From: an archaeon
GTDB taxonomy: Archaea; Micrarchaeota; Micrarchaeia; Norongarragalinales; UBA97
Direction of reading: 5' to 3'
Assembly (NCBI GenBank): GCA_020057405.1
Contig: JAGVFW010000008.1
Coordinates: 1-64,000, forward strand
Length of the DNA: 64,000 nt
Shown one piece after another: positions 38,233-44,750 of the stretch. Below the pieces are notes generated by a model. It was not told the DNA's origin. It saw nothing but the letters and a program-made list of their open reading frames with translations, and made no database searches. Each line of letters begins with the position of its first letter. Position 1 is the stretch's first letter. A program made the position numbers and the translations under genes.

Positions 38233-39954
38233 TCATCTCTCAACAAGCTTGAAAATCAATTTTTGTTCCGCAGCGTCGTGACCGTAAAGTGCAATGGCAA
38301 GACAACGCTTGGCCCAAGCGCGGTCCTGCTGGGTAGCGCCCGTGAGTGCAGGGTGGTTGACGTTGACATAAAGGCCAGGCGCGACTGTCTTTTCAGCAGC
38401 AGAAGATACCTCCGATTTCTGAACAAAAAGAAATGGCGAATGATTCTGTGGCGACAAGCTTACTCGATGCACGATTAGCTCCTCTTCAGATTCGTCCTCT
38501 GGCTCTTCTTCAAAACCCATGGCTTTTTTCTCGGCGGCTGGCAGCTTGGAGAAAGGAAATGGCTTTGATGCCCGCCTTTCCTCAAGAAATGCGCCTAAAT
38601 GGACGGCCGCCTTGTTTTCAAGCGTTCCAGAATTGAACGGCGAGAAGAATTGGTGGTACGCGCCTTCGCCGTAGAAATTCGCGTCGGCGGTTATGAAGTG
38701 AGTTGCATCCAAGTGTCTTTCGTCGCTTACTACGAGTCGCTTTTGAGGGTCAAGTTTGGGCTCATAAGGCTTTCGAAGGCCATTGGCGTATTCAATGATT
38801 TTATCCGTTTTCGCAAGTGCGCCAAAAGATTGCTTGTATTTGAAGCCAAGTTGGGTAAATCCGCCAAGCATCGCGCGCTTGAAGTCCTTAAAGTCGAGCG
38901 CCGCGCGTCCAGTCTTCCGTTCCCCTTCCATTTCCTGCACGTAATCCCATAACTTTGAGAAGACTATCGCTTCTGCCTGCTTCAGTTCGGGCGTTTCGCG
39001 AAAGTCGCGTCGGTTTTCCCCAACTTGGAATGAGGCGGGCATGTGCACGACTGTTCGGAACGGTTTCGCGCCGTAATTGTAAGGCATCTTGTTAAGCAAA
39101 ATGCCGCCCGAAGTGATTGGCAAGTACCGGCCAGTATTCATCCGCGAGCCGAAGTCGAGGTCAACTACTATCTTCTCGTCGCCAAACGGGATTTCGTACT
39201 TTCGAGCGTAACGCGATAGCCTAGGCGGACGGTTGAGTTGCCTGCCGTTAAGCTCGATTACAGCGTGCTTTGGGCTCACGTGCTGCAGGTATTCGGATAG
39301 CTCTCGTGAAATTTCCTTAACCTGCCTCTTTGACAGTTCTCCGCTGATTTCGACGCGCGTTCCCGGAGCTGCAGAAGTCTTCTCGAATGCTGCCATGACG
39401 TCGTTGCCGGTTGGAGAGTTATCCGATGGCTTGAGGCTGAATTCAGCTGCAGTCGCGTGGCCGCCTGAGTTGCTCTCCACCCGCACTGCACGGGCGGTGC
39501 CAGATGTGAGAAATGAGAGATTTGAAAGAAAGCCAAGGCCGAAACGGCCAATTTGCTTTGAGGCTACGCCCGTCTCAGCCCTTGCTTTTCCGGAGTAGTA
39601 CGGCACCGACAGGTTCTGCATCATCGAGTCAAGCGTCATGCCCCCGCCGTTATCCCTAACGACAACGCCGTTTCTGCCAACTGTGATGCTCACCTTGCCC
39701 CCGCCTTTCTCGCGCGTCGCGTCAACAGCGTTTGAAGCGAGCTCGACAACAGAGCGCGGGAGCTCAAACTGGCTGTTGACAAGGTCAAGAAACTTTCCGC
39801 GCACGAAGTGCTCGTCAAAAGACACTTGGTGGGAAGGCACTTCGCCGCTTCCGTGCACCGCCTTGACAACGCTCTTTCTTAGCTCGGCAAAATGCGCCTT
39901 GTCATACTGGGCAATGCCGAAAAGGCGGTGAGCCGGGATTTCGAAACGAGCCAC
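38233..39954 (-). CDS. GHKL (Hsp90/MORC-like) ATPase
   Basis: ELASNAVDA, RDNGGGM, IGRFGLGF, PGTRV, ENRRDF; HtpG-like LYVNVNHPAL near the C-terminus. Confidence 0.88.
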   Translation of the reverse strand: MARFEIPAHRLFGIAQYDKAHFAELRKSVVKAVHGSGEVPSHQVSFDEHFVRGKFLDLVNSQFELPRSVVELASNAVDATREKGGGKVSITVGRNGVVVRDNGGGMTLDSMMQNLSVPYYSGKARAETGVASKQIGRFGLGFLSNLSFLTSGTARAVRVESNSGGHATAAEFSLKPSDNSPTGNDVMAAFEKTSAAPGTRVEISGELSKRQVKEISRELSEYLQHVSPKHAVIELNGRQLNRPPRLSRYARKYEIPFGDEKIVVDLDFGSRMNTGRYLPITSGGILLNKMPYNYGAKPFRTVVHMPASFQVGENRRDFRETPELKQAEAIVFSKLWDYVQEMEGERKTGRAALDFKDFKRAMLGGFTQLGFKYKQSFGALAKTDKIIEYANGLRKPYEPKLDPQKRLVVSDERHLDATHFITADANFYGEGAYHQFFSPFNSGTLENKAAVHLGAFLEERRASKPFPFSKLPAAEKKAMGFEEEPEDESEEELIVHRVSLSPQNHSPFLFVQKSEVSSAAEKTVAPGLYVNVNHPALTGATQQDRAWAKRCLAIALYGHDAAEQKLIFKLVER

Positions 39955-39993
39955 GCTAGAATTCCGCCGAGGAGATTAAAAAAGAGCTTGCCG

Positions 39994-41148
39994 CTATCGG
40001 CCCAGCTTCTTGCGCCAGTCGCTTATTGGAATGTTGTAGGCATAGTCTGCAAACATGTAGGTCTTGCCGAAGTTGGCAAAAACCTCTTCGGGAATGTTTG
40101 AGTTTCGGATGTCCTGCACGGCTTTCCACTGGCCCGCGTCCTTGAGCTTTTTCAAGGATTGCTTGAGCCGCGTGAGGTAAAGCCTCGCGTCGTCCGAGCC
40201 TGCAGTGCGGATGTCATCATCAATCCGCACGAAAGAAGGGTCGTCGCCGTAGCGCGAAGCGGCGTGGACGACGACCAAAGGGTGGTAATTCAAGGGCTTT
40301 GCTGCCTTTTCGACCGGAATGAAAGCGTCTACCGGAATTTTCTTCGAGCCGTACATTCCCTGCAGGTAGTGCAGGAACATCCAAATGTTGTAGTGATCGA
40401 ACTTGTGCTCAACGCGATACCACTCTGAACCGGCTATCGCGTCCTTGAAATTCGCAATCGCTTCCGATTTCACGCGCGTTTCGGTTTTTCGCACAGCAAC
40501 GGCAGTCCGGCCGGATTCGCCACTCTTGATTGAACTTACGTACGAGCTCAAGCCCAAATAACCGGCTACTGCTGCTAAGGCAATGCCTCCAGCTGCGGAT
40601 AACCGCTTTGTGCGAGCCGCGGCTAGTCGTTGGCGAGAAGCGGCCTCTTCGGGACTTAACCGCTCGGCGTTCGGCTTGACTATGCTGAACTCGTTCCGGG
40701 ATGCCGTTTTCAAGTAATTGGCAGTTGCCTTTGGAGCGACAACCAGGTGCACTACCTGCGTGTTGCCCTCCATCTCGAGTCTTTTGAGCAAAACTGGTTC
40801 CTTCATCCTTAGGACAGCAAGTTCCTTGGAGTCCCGCAGCACATTACCCCAGTGGCGTGACAGGCCGGCATCGTCGTAAACGTCTGCATCGCCTTGGCGA
40901 ATCTTGACAGCCGCAACGCGCATCCGCATCTCCTTTGCCTGAAGCTGATTTAACGCCTTGATGCGCTCAGCGCTAAATCCCTTGAGTCTGGAAGTCTCAA
41001 GTCGTCTTGCCTCAGTCGTCCGGTCATTCGTAACATCACTTGGAATCAACGCATTAACAGAAGTCTCGTGGAGCTTGTGTGCTTTAGGATTCAGACGCTC
41101 AACTAGAGCACCAGCGAATACCTTTGCTCCGGCGTAAACGGCTTTCAC
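39994..41148 (-). CDS. Orphan protein with central TM helix
   Basis: Basic N-half; TM segment LSAAGGIALAAVAGYLGLSSYV; GTG start. Confidence 0.7.
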   Translation of the reverse strand: MKAVYAGAKVFAGALVERLNPKAHKLHETSVNALIPSDVTNDRTTEARRLETSRLKGFSAERIKALNQLQAKEMRMRVAAVKIRQGDADVYDDAGLSRHWGNVLRDSKELAVLRMKEPVLLKRLEMEGNTQVVHLVVAPKATANYLKTASRNEFSIVKPNAERLSPEEAASRQRLAAARTKRLSAAGGIALAAVAGYLGLSSYVSSIKSGESGRTAVAVRKTETRVKSEAIANFKDAIAGSEWYRVEHKFDHYNIWMFLHYLQGMYGSKKIPVDAFIPVEKAAKPLNYHPLVVVHAASRYGDDPSFVRIDDDIRTAGSDDARLYLTRLKQSLKKLKDAGQWKAVQDIRNSNIPEEVFANFGKTYMFADYAYNIPISDWRKKLGR

Positions 41149-41266
41149 GAAAAAGTTGTTTTTTCTGACCTTATTAATCGTTCGGATGGTTAAGACCGCA
41201 AGCCGAATGGCCGGGCGGGTAGTGTTTTAAACGCCCGACTGCCTAAGCTAGCTTTGGTGGTCTACA

Positions 41267-41872
41267 ATGTTCGAGTTACCTAAATTGCCTTATGCATACA
41301 ACGCCCTTGAACCATTCATCGACGAGTTGACTATGACTATTCACCACACCAAGCACCACGCAGCTTACGTTGACAACGCGAACAAGGCGCTTTCGGGAAC
41401 GCCGTTTGGGGGCGCGCCAGTTGCCGATGTGGTAATGTCCCTCGATAGCGTTCCAGACGCGGTTAGGACCGCTGTTCGAAACAACGCTGGCGGGCACCTT
41501 AACCACTCGCTCTTCTGGCAGATGATGGGCCCCGGAAAGGGCGGCTCCCCGGGCGGCGAGCTTGAAGAAGCGATTTCAAAGAAGTTCGGCGGCTTTGACA
41601 AGTTCACTGAGCAGATGAATGCCGCTGGCGTCGGAAGATTTGGTTCGGGGTGGGCTTGGCTGGTTTTGAACAAAGGCGAATTGGAAATAATGTCAACACC
41701 AAACCAGGACAACCCGATTACCGAAGGTAAGCAGCCGATTCTGGGAATCGACGTGTGGGAGCATAGTTATTACCTCAAGTGGAAATCCAATCGAGCCGAA
41801 TATCTCAAAAATTGGTGGAATGTAGCGAATTGGGATTTTATGAAAGAGACCTATGTAAGGCTGATTGGCTGA
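41267..41872 (+). CDS. sod: Fe/Mn superoxide dismutase
   Basis: [44 protein letters not shown]. Confidence 0.97.
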
Positions 41873-42705
41873 GTTGACTTTTTTAAATTCAGCCAATTTT
41901 CAACAAAACTCGCTTTTTCCGGCTTAAGTTTGGTGGTCGGTATGCTTTCCAAGAATCGACGCACAAAATCTTTTTTATATATTCTTAGATGATAGGACTC
42001 TTTTCTGGGCGACCCGTCTTTAGACATGTACGCCTTTTGAATAGAATATTTCGCGTCGATATCGAGATGTTCCTTGAGCAGAATACGGACTAATTCTAGA
42101 TATGAATAATTCGTGTTGCAAAGGTCAGGACATATTTTCGGAGTTTTCCTGACTTTTTCTTTGATGATTTTTATGCACCCTTCCGCATCAAAAAAGCCCC
42201 CTATGAACTCAAGAGAATTTGCTCTAAAGTCTCCATCGGCCATAAGCAACTTTAGTTTCTCTAGGTCGCGTCTGATTTCTTTAAACAAGAAAAACAATTC
42301 GGCATTTCCAACGACAACAAACCAGACGTGCCTGCTGCGATTGATGTAACCTTTTACTTTCCTTCCAATGCATACCGATAGCTTCTGGGCGTATTTGTCG
42401 ATGAACTCTTTTTCTCCAACCACGCCTACAATATGCCGGTCTGTTTTCCAAGAATATACGTAACCATCACCGAGCAAAGCACCCAGTACATAGAAAAGTT
42501 CCTTGCAGAATCTTATTCTCCTCTTTCTAAAGGGAGAACTGCTTCCTAAAATCCAGCAATAAACCGTGCCTGAAGGAATTCCGTACGTCTCACTAATTAG
42601 TCGCACTATCTGGACTCGTTCAACGCCTTTTGCCTGCAGTTCTTCTAAATGTCGAAACGCTTTCACTCTGACCGCCGAGGGTATTCTGTTCATCATCTCA
42701 CGCAA
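41851..42705 (-). mobile_element. Free-standing double-motif LAGLIDADG homing endonuclease with N-terminal HTH
   Basis: LFYVLGALLGDG and LEFIGGFFDAEG; N-terminal ISETYGIPSGTVYCW; markedly AT-rich; no intein or intron context; overlaps the sod stop. Confidence 0.9.
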
Positions 42706-42817
42706 ACACTAGAGAAACAACAACTGAAAAATTGCTTTTAAGCCGACTTAGAGCGGGTTGCCGGCCTTGCCGGAGTTAAACCCAGCGAATTTATTCGCCC
42801 AGCGAGTAGCTTAATTT

Positions 42818-43321
42818 GTGAAAACCGAGAAGGCTGCATTCGCGGCAGGATGCTTTTGGGGCGTGGAGCAGCTCTTTGACGGCGTGCGGGGAGTAGTCTC
42901 AACGCGCGCGGGCTACACGGGCGGGCACTTCGACAAGCCCACTTACGCGGATGTCTGCAGAGACGCGACGGGCCACGCCGAGGCAGTCGAGGTAGAGTAC
43001 GACCCGGCGAAAGTGAAGTTCGAGGAACTCTTGAAGCTGTTTTGGGAAATGCACGACCCCACGCAGGACGACGGCCAGGGGCCCGACATCGGCAGTCAAT
43101 ACCGCTCTGCGATTTTCTGCCACACTGATGCCCAGAGGAAAGCGGCGGAAAAATCTCTTGCTGAAGAGCAGAAGAAACACGAAGACAAGATTGTCACACA
43201 AATCGTGAAGGCAAAGGAATTCTGGCCTGCCGAAGGCTACCACCAGAAGTATTATTTGAGCCACGCGGTCGCGTGCCACTTGCCAGTAAGTGCCCTAAAG
43301 AAAATGGGACTGGCCAAGTAG
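42818..43321 (+). CDS. msrA: Peptide methionine sulfoxide reductase A
   Basis: GCFWG, GYTGG, TGHAEAV, HDPT, QYRSAIF, AEGYHQKY. Confidence 0.97.
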   Translation: MKTEKAAFAAGCFWGVEQLFDGVRGVVSTRAGYTGGHFDKPTYADVCRDATGHAEAVEVEYDPAKVKFEELLKLFWEMHDPTQDDGQGPDIGSQYRSAIFCHTDAQRKAAEKSLAEEQKKHEDKIVTQIVKAKEFWPAEGYHQKYYLSHAVACHLPVSALKKMGLAK

Positions 43322-43371
43322 CCGATTAGCGGAAGTCCAGTGTTTAAAATCTGGCGGGATGTATTGAGTCT

Positions 43372-43797
43372 ATGAAATTTCAGGACCTAGGCAAGGCCGC
43401 GGACAAGGAAATGGCGAAGGCCAAAATCAACCCCTACCGCTTCGGGTGGGCCGTCGTGCTGCTATTCCCCATCGTAGCCTTCCTAATCGACAGGGGCTTT
43501 TTGCTAAAGTCGCTCGGCATCTTAATCGCGTTTCCCATAGTGGAATATATTTCAAAGAGCATCGACAACTACGAGGGCCGCTACGGCAGGAAAAGCCTGC
43601 TGCACGTCGGCATCTACCTTGACCGCATCAACGCGTTTCCAGTCTTCGTCATGAAAGTCGTCGGCCTGTTTTTGCTCTCGACTTGGTTCTCCGACTTATT
43701 CGCCGCCTACCTGACAAGCTACTCGGGTGTAATCACGGCCTACTTGGTCATGGCCGCGGTCTTTCTCTACTACCGCACTACGGTAAACGGCAAGTGA
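43372..43797 (+). CDS. Membrane protein
   Basis: About 4 TM segments. Confidence 0.7.
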   Translation: MKFQDLGKAADKEMAKAKINPYRFGWAVVLLFPIVAFLIDRGFLLKSLGILIAFPIVEYISKSIDNYEGRYGRKSLLHVGIYLDRINAFPVFVMKVVGLFLLSTWFSDLFAAYLTSYSGVITAYLVMAAVFLYYRTTVNGK

Positions 43798-43827
43798 ATC
43801 CAAAAAAAGCAGTGCTCTGGGCCAAGG

Positions 43828-44691
43828 CTAGTCAAGCGGCTCTTCGTGCACGAGAACTTCCCGCACTTGCGGCACTGCCTTGATGACCGCGTACTTCACT
43901 GCGCCGGAAATCCGGTGCGCCCGCCTTAACGACATGCGTTCAGGAAACTGCAGGTGGACGTCAACGTAAATGCCACCGGAATAAGAGCGGGCGCGAAGCT
44001 TGTGGAAGCTTAGGACGCCGTTTTGGCTCATGATTGCCGTCCGGATTTTCGAAATAACTTCATCGTCGGGACCGCCGTCGGTAAGCTCACGGACCGAGTT
44101 GGAGCCAATCACGTAGACGATACGAATCATGAGGAGCGACACGATTACTGCCGCGATGGCGTCAAGGCGGTAAAGACCTAGGGACGAGCCGAAGAGGCCC
44201 AAGAGAACAACCGAGTTTTGGAGAATGTCCGAAGAGTAGTTGGCGGCTGTTGCCGAAAGGGCCGAACTACCGTACTCGCGAGCCTTTCGGGAGAGGTACC
44301 TTGACATCAAGACGTTGACGATAATGGTGCAAACGAGAACCGCCAAAACAAGCGGCGTGATTAGAAGCGGCCTTGACTCAAAATAGCGCTCGACTGCCTC
44401 AAACAAGATGAAAAAGGCCGTGAGGAAAATTAAAGTAAGCTGCGCGAGGCCCGAGAGGGCGCCGTACTTCTTGTGGCCGTAAAAGTGGTTGTGGTCGGGC
44501 GGCTCCTGCGCCTTTTTCACGCCAAAGTACGCAAGCAACCCTCCCGCCAAGTCGAAAATGGAGTCAACAAGGACTGCCAAAACGCCGAGGCTGCCAGTCC
44601 AGATGACTACGAGAAGCTTGCTTGAGATAAGAAAAACGTTTGCGACCAGCACCAGTTTGGCCGCGCCCTCCTCGCCGTCGAAAAAACCCAT
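43828..44691 (-). CDS. Cation diffusion facilitator (FieF-like) transporter
   Basis: DSIFD, PPDHNHFYGHKK, SD, HKLRAR, VDVH, VLVHEEP; TTTAAA box at 44715-44720. Confidence 0.93.
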   Translation of the reverse strand: MGFFDGEEGAAKLVLVANVFLISSKLLVVIWTGSLGVLAVLVDSIFDLAGGLLAYFGVKKAQEPPDHNHFYGHKKYGALSGLAQLTLIFLTAFFILFEAVERYFESRPLLITPLVLAVLVCTIIVNVLMSRYLSRKAREYGSSALSATAANYSSDILQNSVVLLGLFGSSLGLYRLDAIAAVIVSLLMIRIVYVIGSNSVRELTDGGPDDEVISKIRTAIMSQNGVLSFHKLRARSYSGGIYVDVHLQFPERMSLRRAHRISGAVKYAVIKAVPQVREVLVHEEPLD

Positions 44692-44750
44692 GCAGGAAAA
44701 ATACTCCGCTGGCATTTAAAGCAATCCGCCCGAAGGCGGATGAACTTAAG

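Follow-up and report, generated by a model that had tools for sequence, protein, structure and literature searches.

An antisense LAGLIDADG endonuclease gene in the superoxide dismutase gene of DPANN archaea, probably part of a homing element that carries its own replacement gene end

A homing endonuclease gene overlapping the end of sod

How did the gene of a free-standing homing endonuclease come to run into the end of a superoxide dismutase gene, and why does that end differ so much from the rest of the gene? The question is raised by a stretch of 64,000 nucleotides (nt) of an archaeal genome of the phylum Micrarchaeota (order Norongarragalinales, UBA97; assembly GCA_020057405.1, contig JAGVFW010000008.1, positions 1 to 64,000 of the forward strand), the whole of which is referred to hereafter as the window. 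In it, the gene encoding an Fe/Mn superoxide dismutase (sod; protein, SOD), which is the sole sod match in its genome, and a LAGLIDADG endonuclease gene on the opposite strand converge and have positions 41851-41872 in common. These coordinates bear out the convergence and the 22-nt overlap from which a first-pass annotation of the window, made from the sequence alone, had started. Its description of the enzyme as a free-standing LAGLIDADG endonuclease was equally sound, since the protein matches PF14528 and is encoded on the opposite strand, outside any splicing element.

The most probable answer by far is that a site-specific homing element, about 1 kb long (approximately positions 41765-42750), is inserted inside sod, directly after the metal-ligand residue His166, and has carried in its own 3' end of the gene. 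The central claim of the first-pass annotation, that the endonuclease brought a replacement 3' end for sod, is supported by displaced remnants of the original end at related loci, by a shift in codon usage and by the diversification of codons 167-174. Three observations had been named that would speak against that claim, namely congruent phylogenies of the two sod halves, a uniform GC content at third codon positions (GC3) and homologous endonucleases lying away from sod; all three were looked into, and none overturns the reading.

Displaced sod 3' ends beyond the endonuclease gene

Related loci were surveyed through the endonuclease, in the DNA of three loci from species genomes and 80 loci from metagenomes. 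Of 65 distinct loci, 19 still show a degraded duplicate of the sod C-terminus, oriented like sod and lying 9-195 nt beyond the start of the endonuclease gene. All 19 remnants scored above 37, the maximum reached in 130 control searches against reversed and wrong-strand sequence. Two further loci (L076 and L077), kept out of the 65-locus count by the length filter, also possess a remnant, whereas 26 endonuclease-less loci yielded a single weak match (score 42, L130). These remnants are the key result and the strongest support for the insertion, and they had not been predicted by the first-pass annotation.

The best-kept remnants begin at codon 167 or 168 (AYYL... or YYL...), and DVWEH is never retained. 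Within one and the same locus, the remnant can be canonical while the functional gene end is a variant, as in L053 (KYQNRR against KYMWNR), L076 (YYLKYQNRR against YYVRYTYNR), L092 (LKYQNRR against ILYKWQR) and L078 (AYYLQYK against SYYLQYK). The remnants, together with this contrast between canonical relic and variant functional end, argue for an element that has lodged within sod behind His166 together with a gene end of its own.

A different placement of the element's left boundary is the main point on which this explanation differs from a second one, in which a mobile endonuclease of the phage type inserts just after the sod stop codon, cuts at a distance and carries no gene end, so that the AT-rich end of sod is ordinary co-conversion and the remnants are unrelated duplications. 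The window itself has no remnant, stop codons stand back to back in 16 of 80 loci, and flanking co-conversion is typical of phage free-standing endonucleases (PMC2988022); these three points would suit an insertion after the stop. It is nevertheless unlikely: the remnants share a consistent start at codon 167/168 and extend, oriented like sod, as far as the C-terminus, which is what an element that had entered the gene and carried an end of its own would leave behind; the diversification described below is confined to codons 167-174, beside the junction; and one recombinant sod (G325) breaks at about codon 169. What the first-pass annotation took for co-conversion of a neighbouring gene is more than that: the element is an insertion inside sod which carries a replacement end, with its junction at codons 166-168 (between WEH and AYY) and not at [10 protein letters not shown].

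Diversification of sod next to the junction

The probable insertion inside sod after His166 is also reflected in the alleles themselves. When 53 unique complete sod alleles with an adjoining endonuclease were compared with 86 alleles without one, nucleotide conservation was lost in the endonuclease-bearing alleles only at codons 167-174. The canonical residues A167, Y172 and N174 were present in 6 of the 53 carrier alleles and in 71 of the 86 non-carrier alleles (Fisher 3e-17, on alleles that are not phylogenetically independent). Among seven well-supported independent pairs, taken from a tree of sod codons 1-160 only, a mean of 5.0 changed in the expected direction, 0.1 in the opposite direction and 1.9 not at all. 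Compared with the nearest non-carrier, the carrier motif was less similar than the N-terminal part of sod (N-part) predicts (residual -0.174 versus +0.028, p = 3.5e-10), and the effect was smaller for the tail from codon 178 than for the motif. The ligand residues D162 and H166 were kept in all 53 carrier alleles.

Some endonuclease-less alleles possess motifs of the carrier type (e.g. AYYIDVGPDR and AYYKKFGPAR), which fits a loss of the endonuclease after invasion.

Base composition and codon usage along sod

Each codon of the window sod was scored, given its amino acid, for host usage against usage in the endonuclease gene. The cumulative score rose to codon 122 (nt 41632), remained flat to codon 165 and fell from codon 166, with mean scores of +0.233 over codons 1-122, -0.059 over codons 123-165 and -0.354 over codons 166-201; the observed cumulative sum (CUSUM) was reached in none of 5000 permutations. 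Two-fold-degenerate codons ended in G or C in 46 of 63 cases before codon 173 and in 1 of 13 after it (permutation p = 0.0006), the signal also peaking at codon 166 and, less strongly, at codon 118; over codons 166-201 the count was 3 of 17, compared with 44 of 59 upstream. These tests, together with codon usage conditional on the amino acid, replaced a plain GC3 change-point test over all sod codons, which was not significant (permutation p = 0.43). The GC3 breakpoint analysis that the first-pass annotation had called for therefore failed in its plain form, whereas two-fold codons and codon scores both revealed a non-uniform gene. The codon switch that it had placed at [10 protein letters not shown] coincides with the score peak just before it, at codon 122, but codons 123-165 are mixed and the usage is foreign only from about codon 166.

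GC content decreases in steps along sod (Table 1) and is 0.413 in the endonuclease gene; beyond the AT-rich stretch that follows, it returns to 0.537 (42751-42817) and 0.571 (msrA). A low-GC island (41765-42750) thus lies between flanks of 0.54-0.57 GC. The island and the codon-usage shift are signs of horizontal origin in the window host and coincide with the boundaries of the element, for which reason they count as support for a carried-in cassette. The mixed zone of codons 123-165 is possibly a co-conversion tract upstream of the junction.

Foreign composition at the end of a conserved gene could in principle come from a chimeric metagenome assembly at the conserved sod sequence, or from a local compositional quirk without any transfer. 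Conserved genes are known places for chimeric joins, and the genome assembly (1.22 Mb, 55.8% GC) consists of 17 contigs with an estimated completeness of 90.6%; no public sequencing run holding window positions 41000-43100 was listed. Such an artefact is hardly credible here, as the low-GC island has host-like sequence on both sides and the same architecture recurs in 80 contigs of other records. A 3' drop over the last 36 codons as large as that of sod was found in only 1 of 709 long open reading frames (ORFs) of the genome, a set that includes sod and in which that one ORF may be sod itself, and the shift was absent from the sod of seven of seven relatives.

Recombinant sod genes and coupling with the endonuclease

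Mosaic histories were detected in other carriers. The sod of genome G325 resembles that of its congener G239 up to about codon 169, and thereafter that of the unrelated endonuclease-bearing locus L024, with informative sites divided 135/42 upstream and 13/28 downstream (max-chi-square, p < 0.001). The sod of G123 breaks at about codons 150-160 (max-chi-square, p ≤ 0.008). Loci L087 and L094 differ from L107 by distances of 0.30-0.31 in the endonuclease and 0.28-0.33 in the sod C-terminal part (C-part), compared with 0.53-0.54 in the N-part. In partial Mantel tests controlled for the N-part, the endonuclease distance tracked both the motif (r = 0.17) and the tail (r = 0.24; p = 0.0005 for each). 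The incongruent sod halves expected by the first-pass annotation are therefore real in G325 and G123, while the tests on the window's own sod gave mixed results (see below). Breaks at or close to the junction also lend indirect support to a conversion of element-less alleles that would depend on the endonuclease.

A further pair of loci, L072 and L085, are separated by a distance of 0.02 in the sod N-part and of 0.32 in their endonucleases, which suggests either that one cassette was replaced by another or that a single sod background was invaded twice independently.

Linkage to sod and patchy distribution

In 80 of the 83 surveyed loci, which are all those that could be judged, a sod gene on the opposite strand abuts the 3' end of the endonuclease gene; in the other three, only 11, 73 and 81 nt of contig are left past the endonuclease gene. 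The stop-to-stop gap ranges from -103 to +30 nt, being exactly 0 in 16 of 80 loci (own count), with locus L101 as an exception (+161 nt). In a sample of 400 further genomes of the phylum, 136 possessed a sod (E ≤ 1e-30; including the unpublished genome G216), and only three of these, from three different families, harbored the endonuclease, in each case convergent with and adjoining sod. The adjacency survey proposed in the first-pass annotation thus returned linkage in 80 of 83 loci and in three of three further genomes. The element also occupies a constant site, as a mobile element with a specific target would: it is always at the sod 3' end in the loci that can be judged, and its remnants start at codon 167/168.

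No close homologue of the endonuclease was found among the 40 nearest relatives of the window genome. Genome G001, of the same genus, has no endonuclease; its sod is 75% identical and has different neighbours. Within genus g44, the order of upstream gene and sod is kept in G325, which has the element, and in G239 and G173, which do not. Downstream of sod, gene order is conserved neither between the window and G001 nor within g44, so that the right boundary of the element cannot be fixed from close genomes. On a tree of the sod N-terminal part, presence and absence of the endonuclease changes at least 21 times.

The region of overlap is itself variable. The window endonuclease extends by a run-on tail of 11 residues ([11 protein letters not shown]), which creates its 22-nt antisense overlap with sod, while many family members end in ...NWLNNGK with the stop codon directly against that of sod; run-on tails at other loci reach up to 103 nt, and the tails differ in length and show no conservation. 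At L101 (about positions 864-1283), an endonuclease homologue adjoins a truncated sod (an 85-residue ORF of which residues 1-84 match), and the host gene may have been broken there rather than rebuilt.

Two types of sod coexist within single genera. In g44, identity to the window sod is 52-57% for G173, G239 and G325, compared with 42-45% for G052, G053, G063, G090 and others, and the endonuclease family adjoins both types.

The endonuclease

The encoded protein matched LAGLIDADG_3 (PF14528) with 38.3 bits (cut-off 22.5; E = 1.7e-9) over residues 165-255. Its two motifs, LGALLGDG (D80) and FFDAEG (E175), were examined in an alignment of 36 homologues that are 46-61% identical, in which both acidic residues are invariant, together with G75, G79 and G81 in the first motif and G170, F172, D173, A174, G176 and C177 in the second. 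In the LAGLIDADG family, the residues corresponding to D80 and E175 are catalytic. The AlphaFold2 model (predicted local distance difference test, pLDDT, 93.5; predicted template-modelling score, pTM, 0.88) shows a three-helix N-terminal domain followed by two alpha/beta domains, the latter in the pseudo-dimeric fold of monomeric LAGLIDADG enzymes. The best Foldseek matches were chains of I-DmoI (PDB 2vs7, 5a0w and others; E = 4e-10, target-normalised TM-score 0.67-0.69, 20-22% identity). The helices of the N-terminal domain span residues 10-25, 30-41 and 45-53 in the model; W51 and P58 are invariant and the region is conserved across homologues, with no Pfam match for the N-terminal 71 residues at E ≤ 10. 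This domain is possibly an extra DNA-binding module.

The window endonuclease looks intact. It is present in a single copy in its genome and has alternative starts at ATG codons corresponding to residues 4 and 5; the database protein has 280 residues. Among the 77 distinct sequences of the family, 65 have their full length, both motifs and an uninterrupted frame, while three contain an internal stop, and a TAA also lies inside the match in G123. In eight distinct members (L045, L048, L055, L057, L066, L073, L100 and L106), the N-terminal 55-68 residues, with the three-helix domain, are missing even though the contig extends further upstream; the enzyme may exist there in a shortened version, or its N-terminus may have diverged strongly.

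The protein search returned 249 homologues at E ≤ 1e-3, whose source names point to Diapherotrites, Woesearchaeota, Micrarchaeota and Nanoarchaeota archaea and thereby to a DPANN archaeon as the host; the best homologue of the window endonuclease is 61% identical. A scan of viral contigs gave only two distant relatives (26-29% identity), and no viral carrier was seen.

Evidence weighing against a mobile element

Several results count against the insertion of a mobile element with a carried end. No sod 3' remnant was found in the window between positions 42676 and 43400 (best E = 1.8), nor in any of the three carriers among the species genomes. At the junction, 6 of 53 carriers keep the three canonical residues and 15 of 86 non-carriers do not; carrier and non-carrier alleles were moreover drawn from different sampling frames, kinship is ignored by the Fisher test, and the sign test on independent pairs reached a median p of only 0.06, limited by the number of pairs. 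In plain Mantel tests, the endonuclease correlated with the sod C-part (r = 0.45) no better than with the N-part (r = 0.51, or 0.46 ± 0.05 when 41 of its columns were drawn at random), and it still tracked the N-part after control for the C-part (partial r = 0.36). This coupling implies that much of the history of the family is co-divergence with the host gene. As for the window sod, its N-terminal part is closest to that of G001 (0.76 identity), and so is its C-terminal part (0.63, versus 0.59 for L027 and L060). Three-sequence tests for the window were mixed, being not significant with L027, at p = 0.09 with L009, and significant but confounded by base composition with L060. The protein-level tests thus pick out no donor for the putative window cassette.

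Co-divergence of this kind would be natural if the LAGLIDADG protein were a domesticated partner of sod (e.g. a DNA-binding regulator acting through its N-terminal helical domain), which had descended vertically since the time of an early DPANN ancestor and disappeared from most lineages, the oddities of the sod 3' end being side effects of convergent packing. An adjacency conserved across deep divergence, the correlation with the N-part just given, the intact state of most ORFs (65 of 77) and the conservation of the extra N-terminal domain are all in keeping with a domesticated protein. This explanation is quite unlikely, however, in view of the displaced remnants in 19 of 65 loci and of the recombination breakpoints at the junction. 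The window gene has 41% GC in a genome of 56% GC, and the endonuclease was found in only 3 of 136 sod-bearing genomes, in three families, with none detected in genomes of the same genus or in congeners that preserve the upstream order. In addition, both catalytic acidic residues are invariant, which a pure DNA binder would not need, and internal stops occur in 3 of 77 sequences and, as a TAA, in the G123 match. The homing element inserted after His166 remains the explanation adopted here, with the window copy read as a derived member that would have lost its duplicate of the sod end.

Proposed mechanism of invasion

Three parts would make up the element: a set of replacement sod codons (about 167-201, with the stop codon) in frame with the host 5' part, which would yield a full-length SOD; a gene in antisense that encodes a monomeric LAGLIDADG endonuclease of two domains, preceded by an N-terminal three-helix domain; and a short AT-rich spacer. 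The enzyme would cut element-less sod alleles in the conserved sequence encoding WEH-AYYL(K/Q)Y(Q/K)N, and repair of the break from a carrier allele would copy the cassette in. The original 3' end would thereby be pushed downstream, where it would decay; as long as a remnant survives, it could offer right-hand homology for the next invasion and for entry into new lineages. As the carried end is a variant at codons 167-174, carriers would be protected from recutting, and a widening of the gap during repair would account for the mixed codon usage at codons 123-165. Some route of DNA transfer between cells would also be part of this mechanism. The layout of the locus, its strict tie to sod, the remnants, the diversified motif, the patchy occurrence, the foreign composition and the recombinant sod genes are observed, whereas cleavage, the exact target, the resistance of carriers and the transfer route are inferences. 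With no remnant, the window copy may spread only where the flank on the msrA side is shared.

In a broader interpretation, which is given slightly better than even chances, DPANN archaea harbor a previously undescribed class of chromosomal homing cassette, by which a protein gene is invaded without an intron or intein through a replacement end. The conflict between endonuclease and target would drive the rapid diversification of codons 167-174 near the SOD active site, and the displaced end would give homology across distant lineages. Cassettes built in this way may be common at the 3' ends of further conserved genes in prokaryotes and have gone unnoticed there.

Comparison with known systems and significance

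In design, the nearest known counterpart occurs in fungal mitochondria; a hybrid atp6 gene of Allomyces reportedly belongs to the same type. In Endoconidiophora resinifera, the endonuclease genes of mitochondrial atp6 and cob are flanked by a duplication of the C-terminus of the host gene (PMC6279837). Such systems share with the present one an endonuclease gene at the 3' end of a conserved protein gene, a partial C-terminal copy on its far side and a functional gene that keeps its complete frame, the ORFs being of the LAGLIDADG or GIY-YIG type. The far-side partial copy is absent from the window but present in 19 of the 65 related loci, and a different origin of the 3' and 5' parts of sod is indicated by the codon usage in the window and by the breakpoints in G325 and G123. 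Unlike the fungal cases, the element described here is found in DPANN chromosomes rather than organelles, has sod as its probable target and its endonuclease gene in antisense; it also includes an N-terminal three-helix domain and a strongly diversified carried end, and its duplicate is lost in the window.

In process, the nearest counterpart is the intronless homing of phages (T4 SegF, SegG and MobE), in which carriers must differ at the cleavage site; it is similar in that the endonuclease lies outside any intron or intein and break repair co-converts flanking host sequence. The phage enzymes are of the GIY-YIG and HNH types and cut at distances of hundreds or thousands of bp from the gene that encodes them (PMC2988022). 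In the window, by contrast, the nuclease is of the LAGLIDADG type and the host is cellular; the probable junction falls within the adjacent gene, some 105 nt away from the endonuclease ORF, and an entire substitute gene end is apparently carried along. With such a nuclease and a probable junction so close, the element does not belong to the phage Seg/Mob type.

In fold, the nearest counterpart is the archaeal enzyme I-DmoI, which is encoded in an rRNA intron and has a similar monomeric core of two LAGLIDADG domains, whereas the window protein is free-standing, about 90 residues longer and endowed with the N-terminal helical domain. The intein-encoded endonucleases PI-PfuI and PI-SceI also contain a LAGLIDADG_3-type domain and are directed at the part of a host protein gene that encodes its conserved active-site region, but the window protein has no splicing domains, is encoded by the opposite strand and is made separately from SOD, whose function would be kept by the replacement 3' end and not by protein splicing. 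An intein or an intron-encoded enzyme was accordingly rejected: sod is a continuous frame of 201 codons, colinear with element-less relatives, the endonuclease gene is antisense, and Pfam detected no intein domains.

In the openly available literature searched, judged in part by titles and the opening lines of abstracts, no report was found that links LAGLIDADG endonucleases to sod or describes this design in archaea. Gene invasion with a carried end, known from fungal mitochondria, is apparently not reported for archaeal chromosomes, and the loci described here would extend it to the chromosomes of cellular archaea. They would also indicate that homing endonucleases can colonise essential conserved prokaryotic genes without introns or inteins. 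Over 70 different enzymes, every one accompanied by its own putatively resistant allele, together with 19 loci that keep a relic of the presumably susceptible sequence, form a comparison set in which the co-evolution of endonuclease and target could be read directly from the sequences. DNA exchange is implied among DPANN lineages, whose transfer routes are poorly known. Compact monomeric LAGLIDADG scaffolds with a probable target in a widely conserved sod motif may interest meganuclease engineers. For genome annotation, the element rather than an assembly error would be signalled by a sod 3' end that is AT-rich or oddly diverged and adjoins a LAGLIDADG ORF in antisense, or by an isolated piece of the sod C-terminus.

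Feature coordinates and neighbouring genes

Table 1. Features of the sod locus, with positions given in the window.
Feature	Position	Strand	Basis or remark
sod, Fe/Mn superoxide dismutase, 201 residues	41267..41872	+	Pfam Sod_Fe_N and Sod_Fe_C; mosaic of host and probable element sequence
Host-like 5' part of sod, codons 1-122	41267..41632	+	Codon score; GC 0.557
Mixed zone of sod, codons 123-166	41633..41764	+	Codon score; GC 0.50
Probable junction/target region, codons 164-174 ([11 protein letters not shown]), variant form in the window	41756..41788	+	
Putative replacement 3' end of sod, codons 167-201 and stop	41765..41872	+	GC 0.389; codon usage
Free-standing LAGLIDADG homing endonuclease gene, 284 residues from a TTG start	41851..42705	-	PF14528
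Second LAGLIDADG motif, IGGFFDAEGC, residues 168-177, acidic residue E175	42175..42204	-	
First LAGLIDADG motif, YVLGALLGDGY, residues 72-82, acidic residue D80	42460..42492	-	
N-terminal three-helix domain of the endonuclease, residues 10-53	42547..42678	-	Predicted structure
AT-rich stretch 5' of the endonuclease gene, probable right end of the element	42706..42750		GC 0.333
msrA, peptide methionine sulfoxide reductase, flanking host gene	42818..43321	+	Pfam PMSR, E = 5e-63

Upstream of sod, on the reverse strand (38233-41148), two adjacent genes encode proteins of 573 and 384 residues, which could be a pair of unknown function. The 573-residue protein contains a GHKL-type ATPase domain (HATPase_c_3, E = 1e-7), and its identification as TmtA was discarded, the best PADLOC match being unconvincing (E = 6.7e-4, 16 bits). 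The 384-residue protein had no match in Pfam or PADLOC, and PADLOC gave no convincing match for any of the three window proteins tried. A scan for promoters and terminators of the bacterial type was uninformative, the models being bacterial and the host archaeal.

On the other side, sod and msrA lie close to a cation-efflux (CDF) transporter gene (43828-44715, reverse strand), the three genes being contained within window positions 41267-44715. Together they may serve in oxidative stress and the handling of metals, as a small cluster that the element would have entered.

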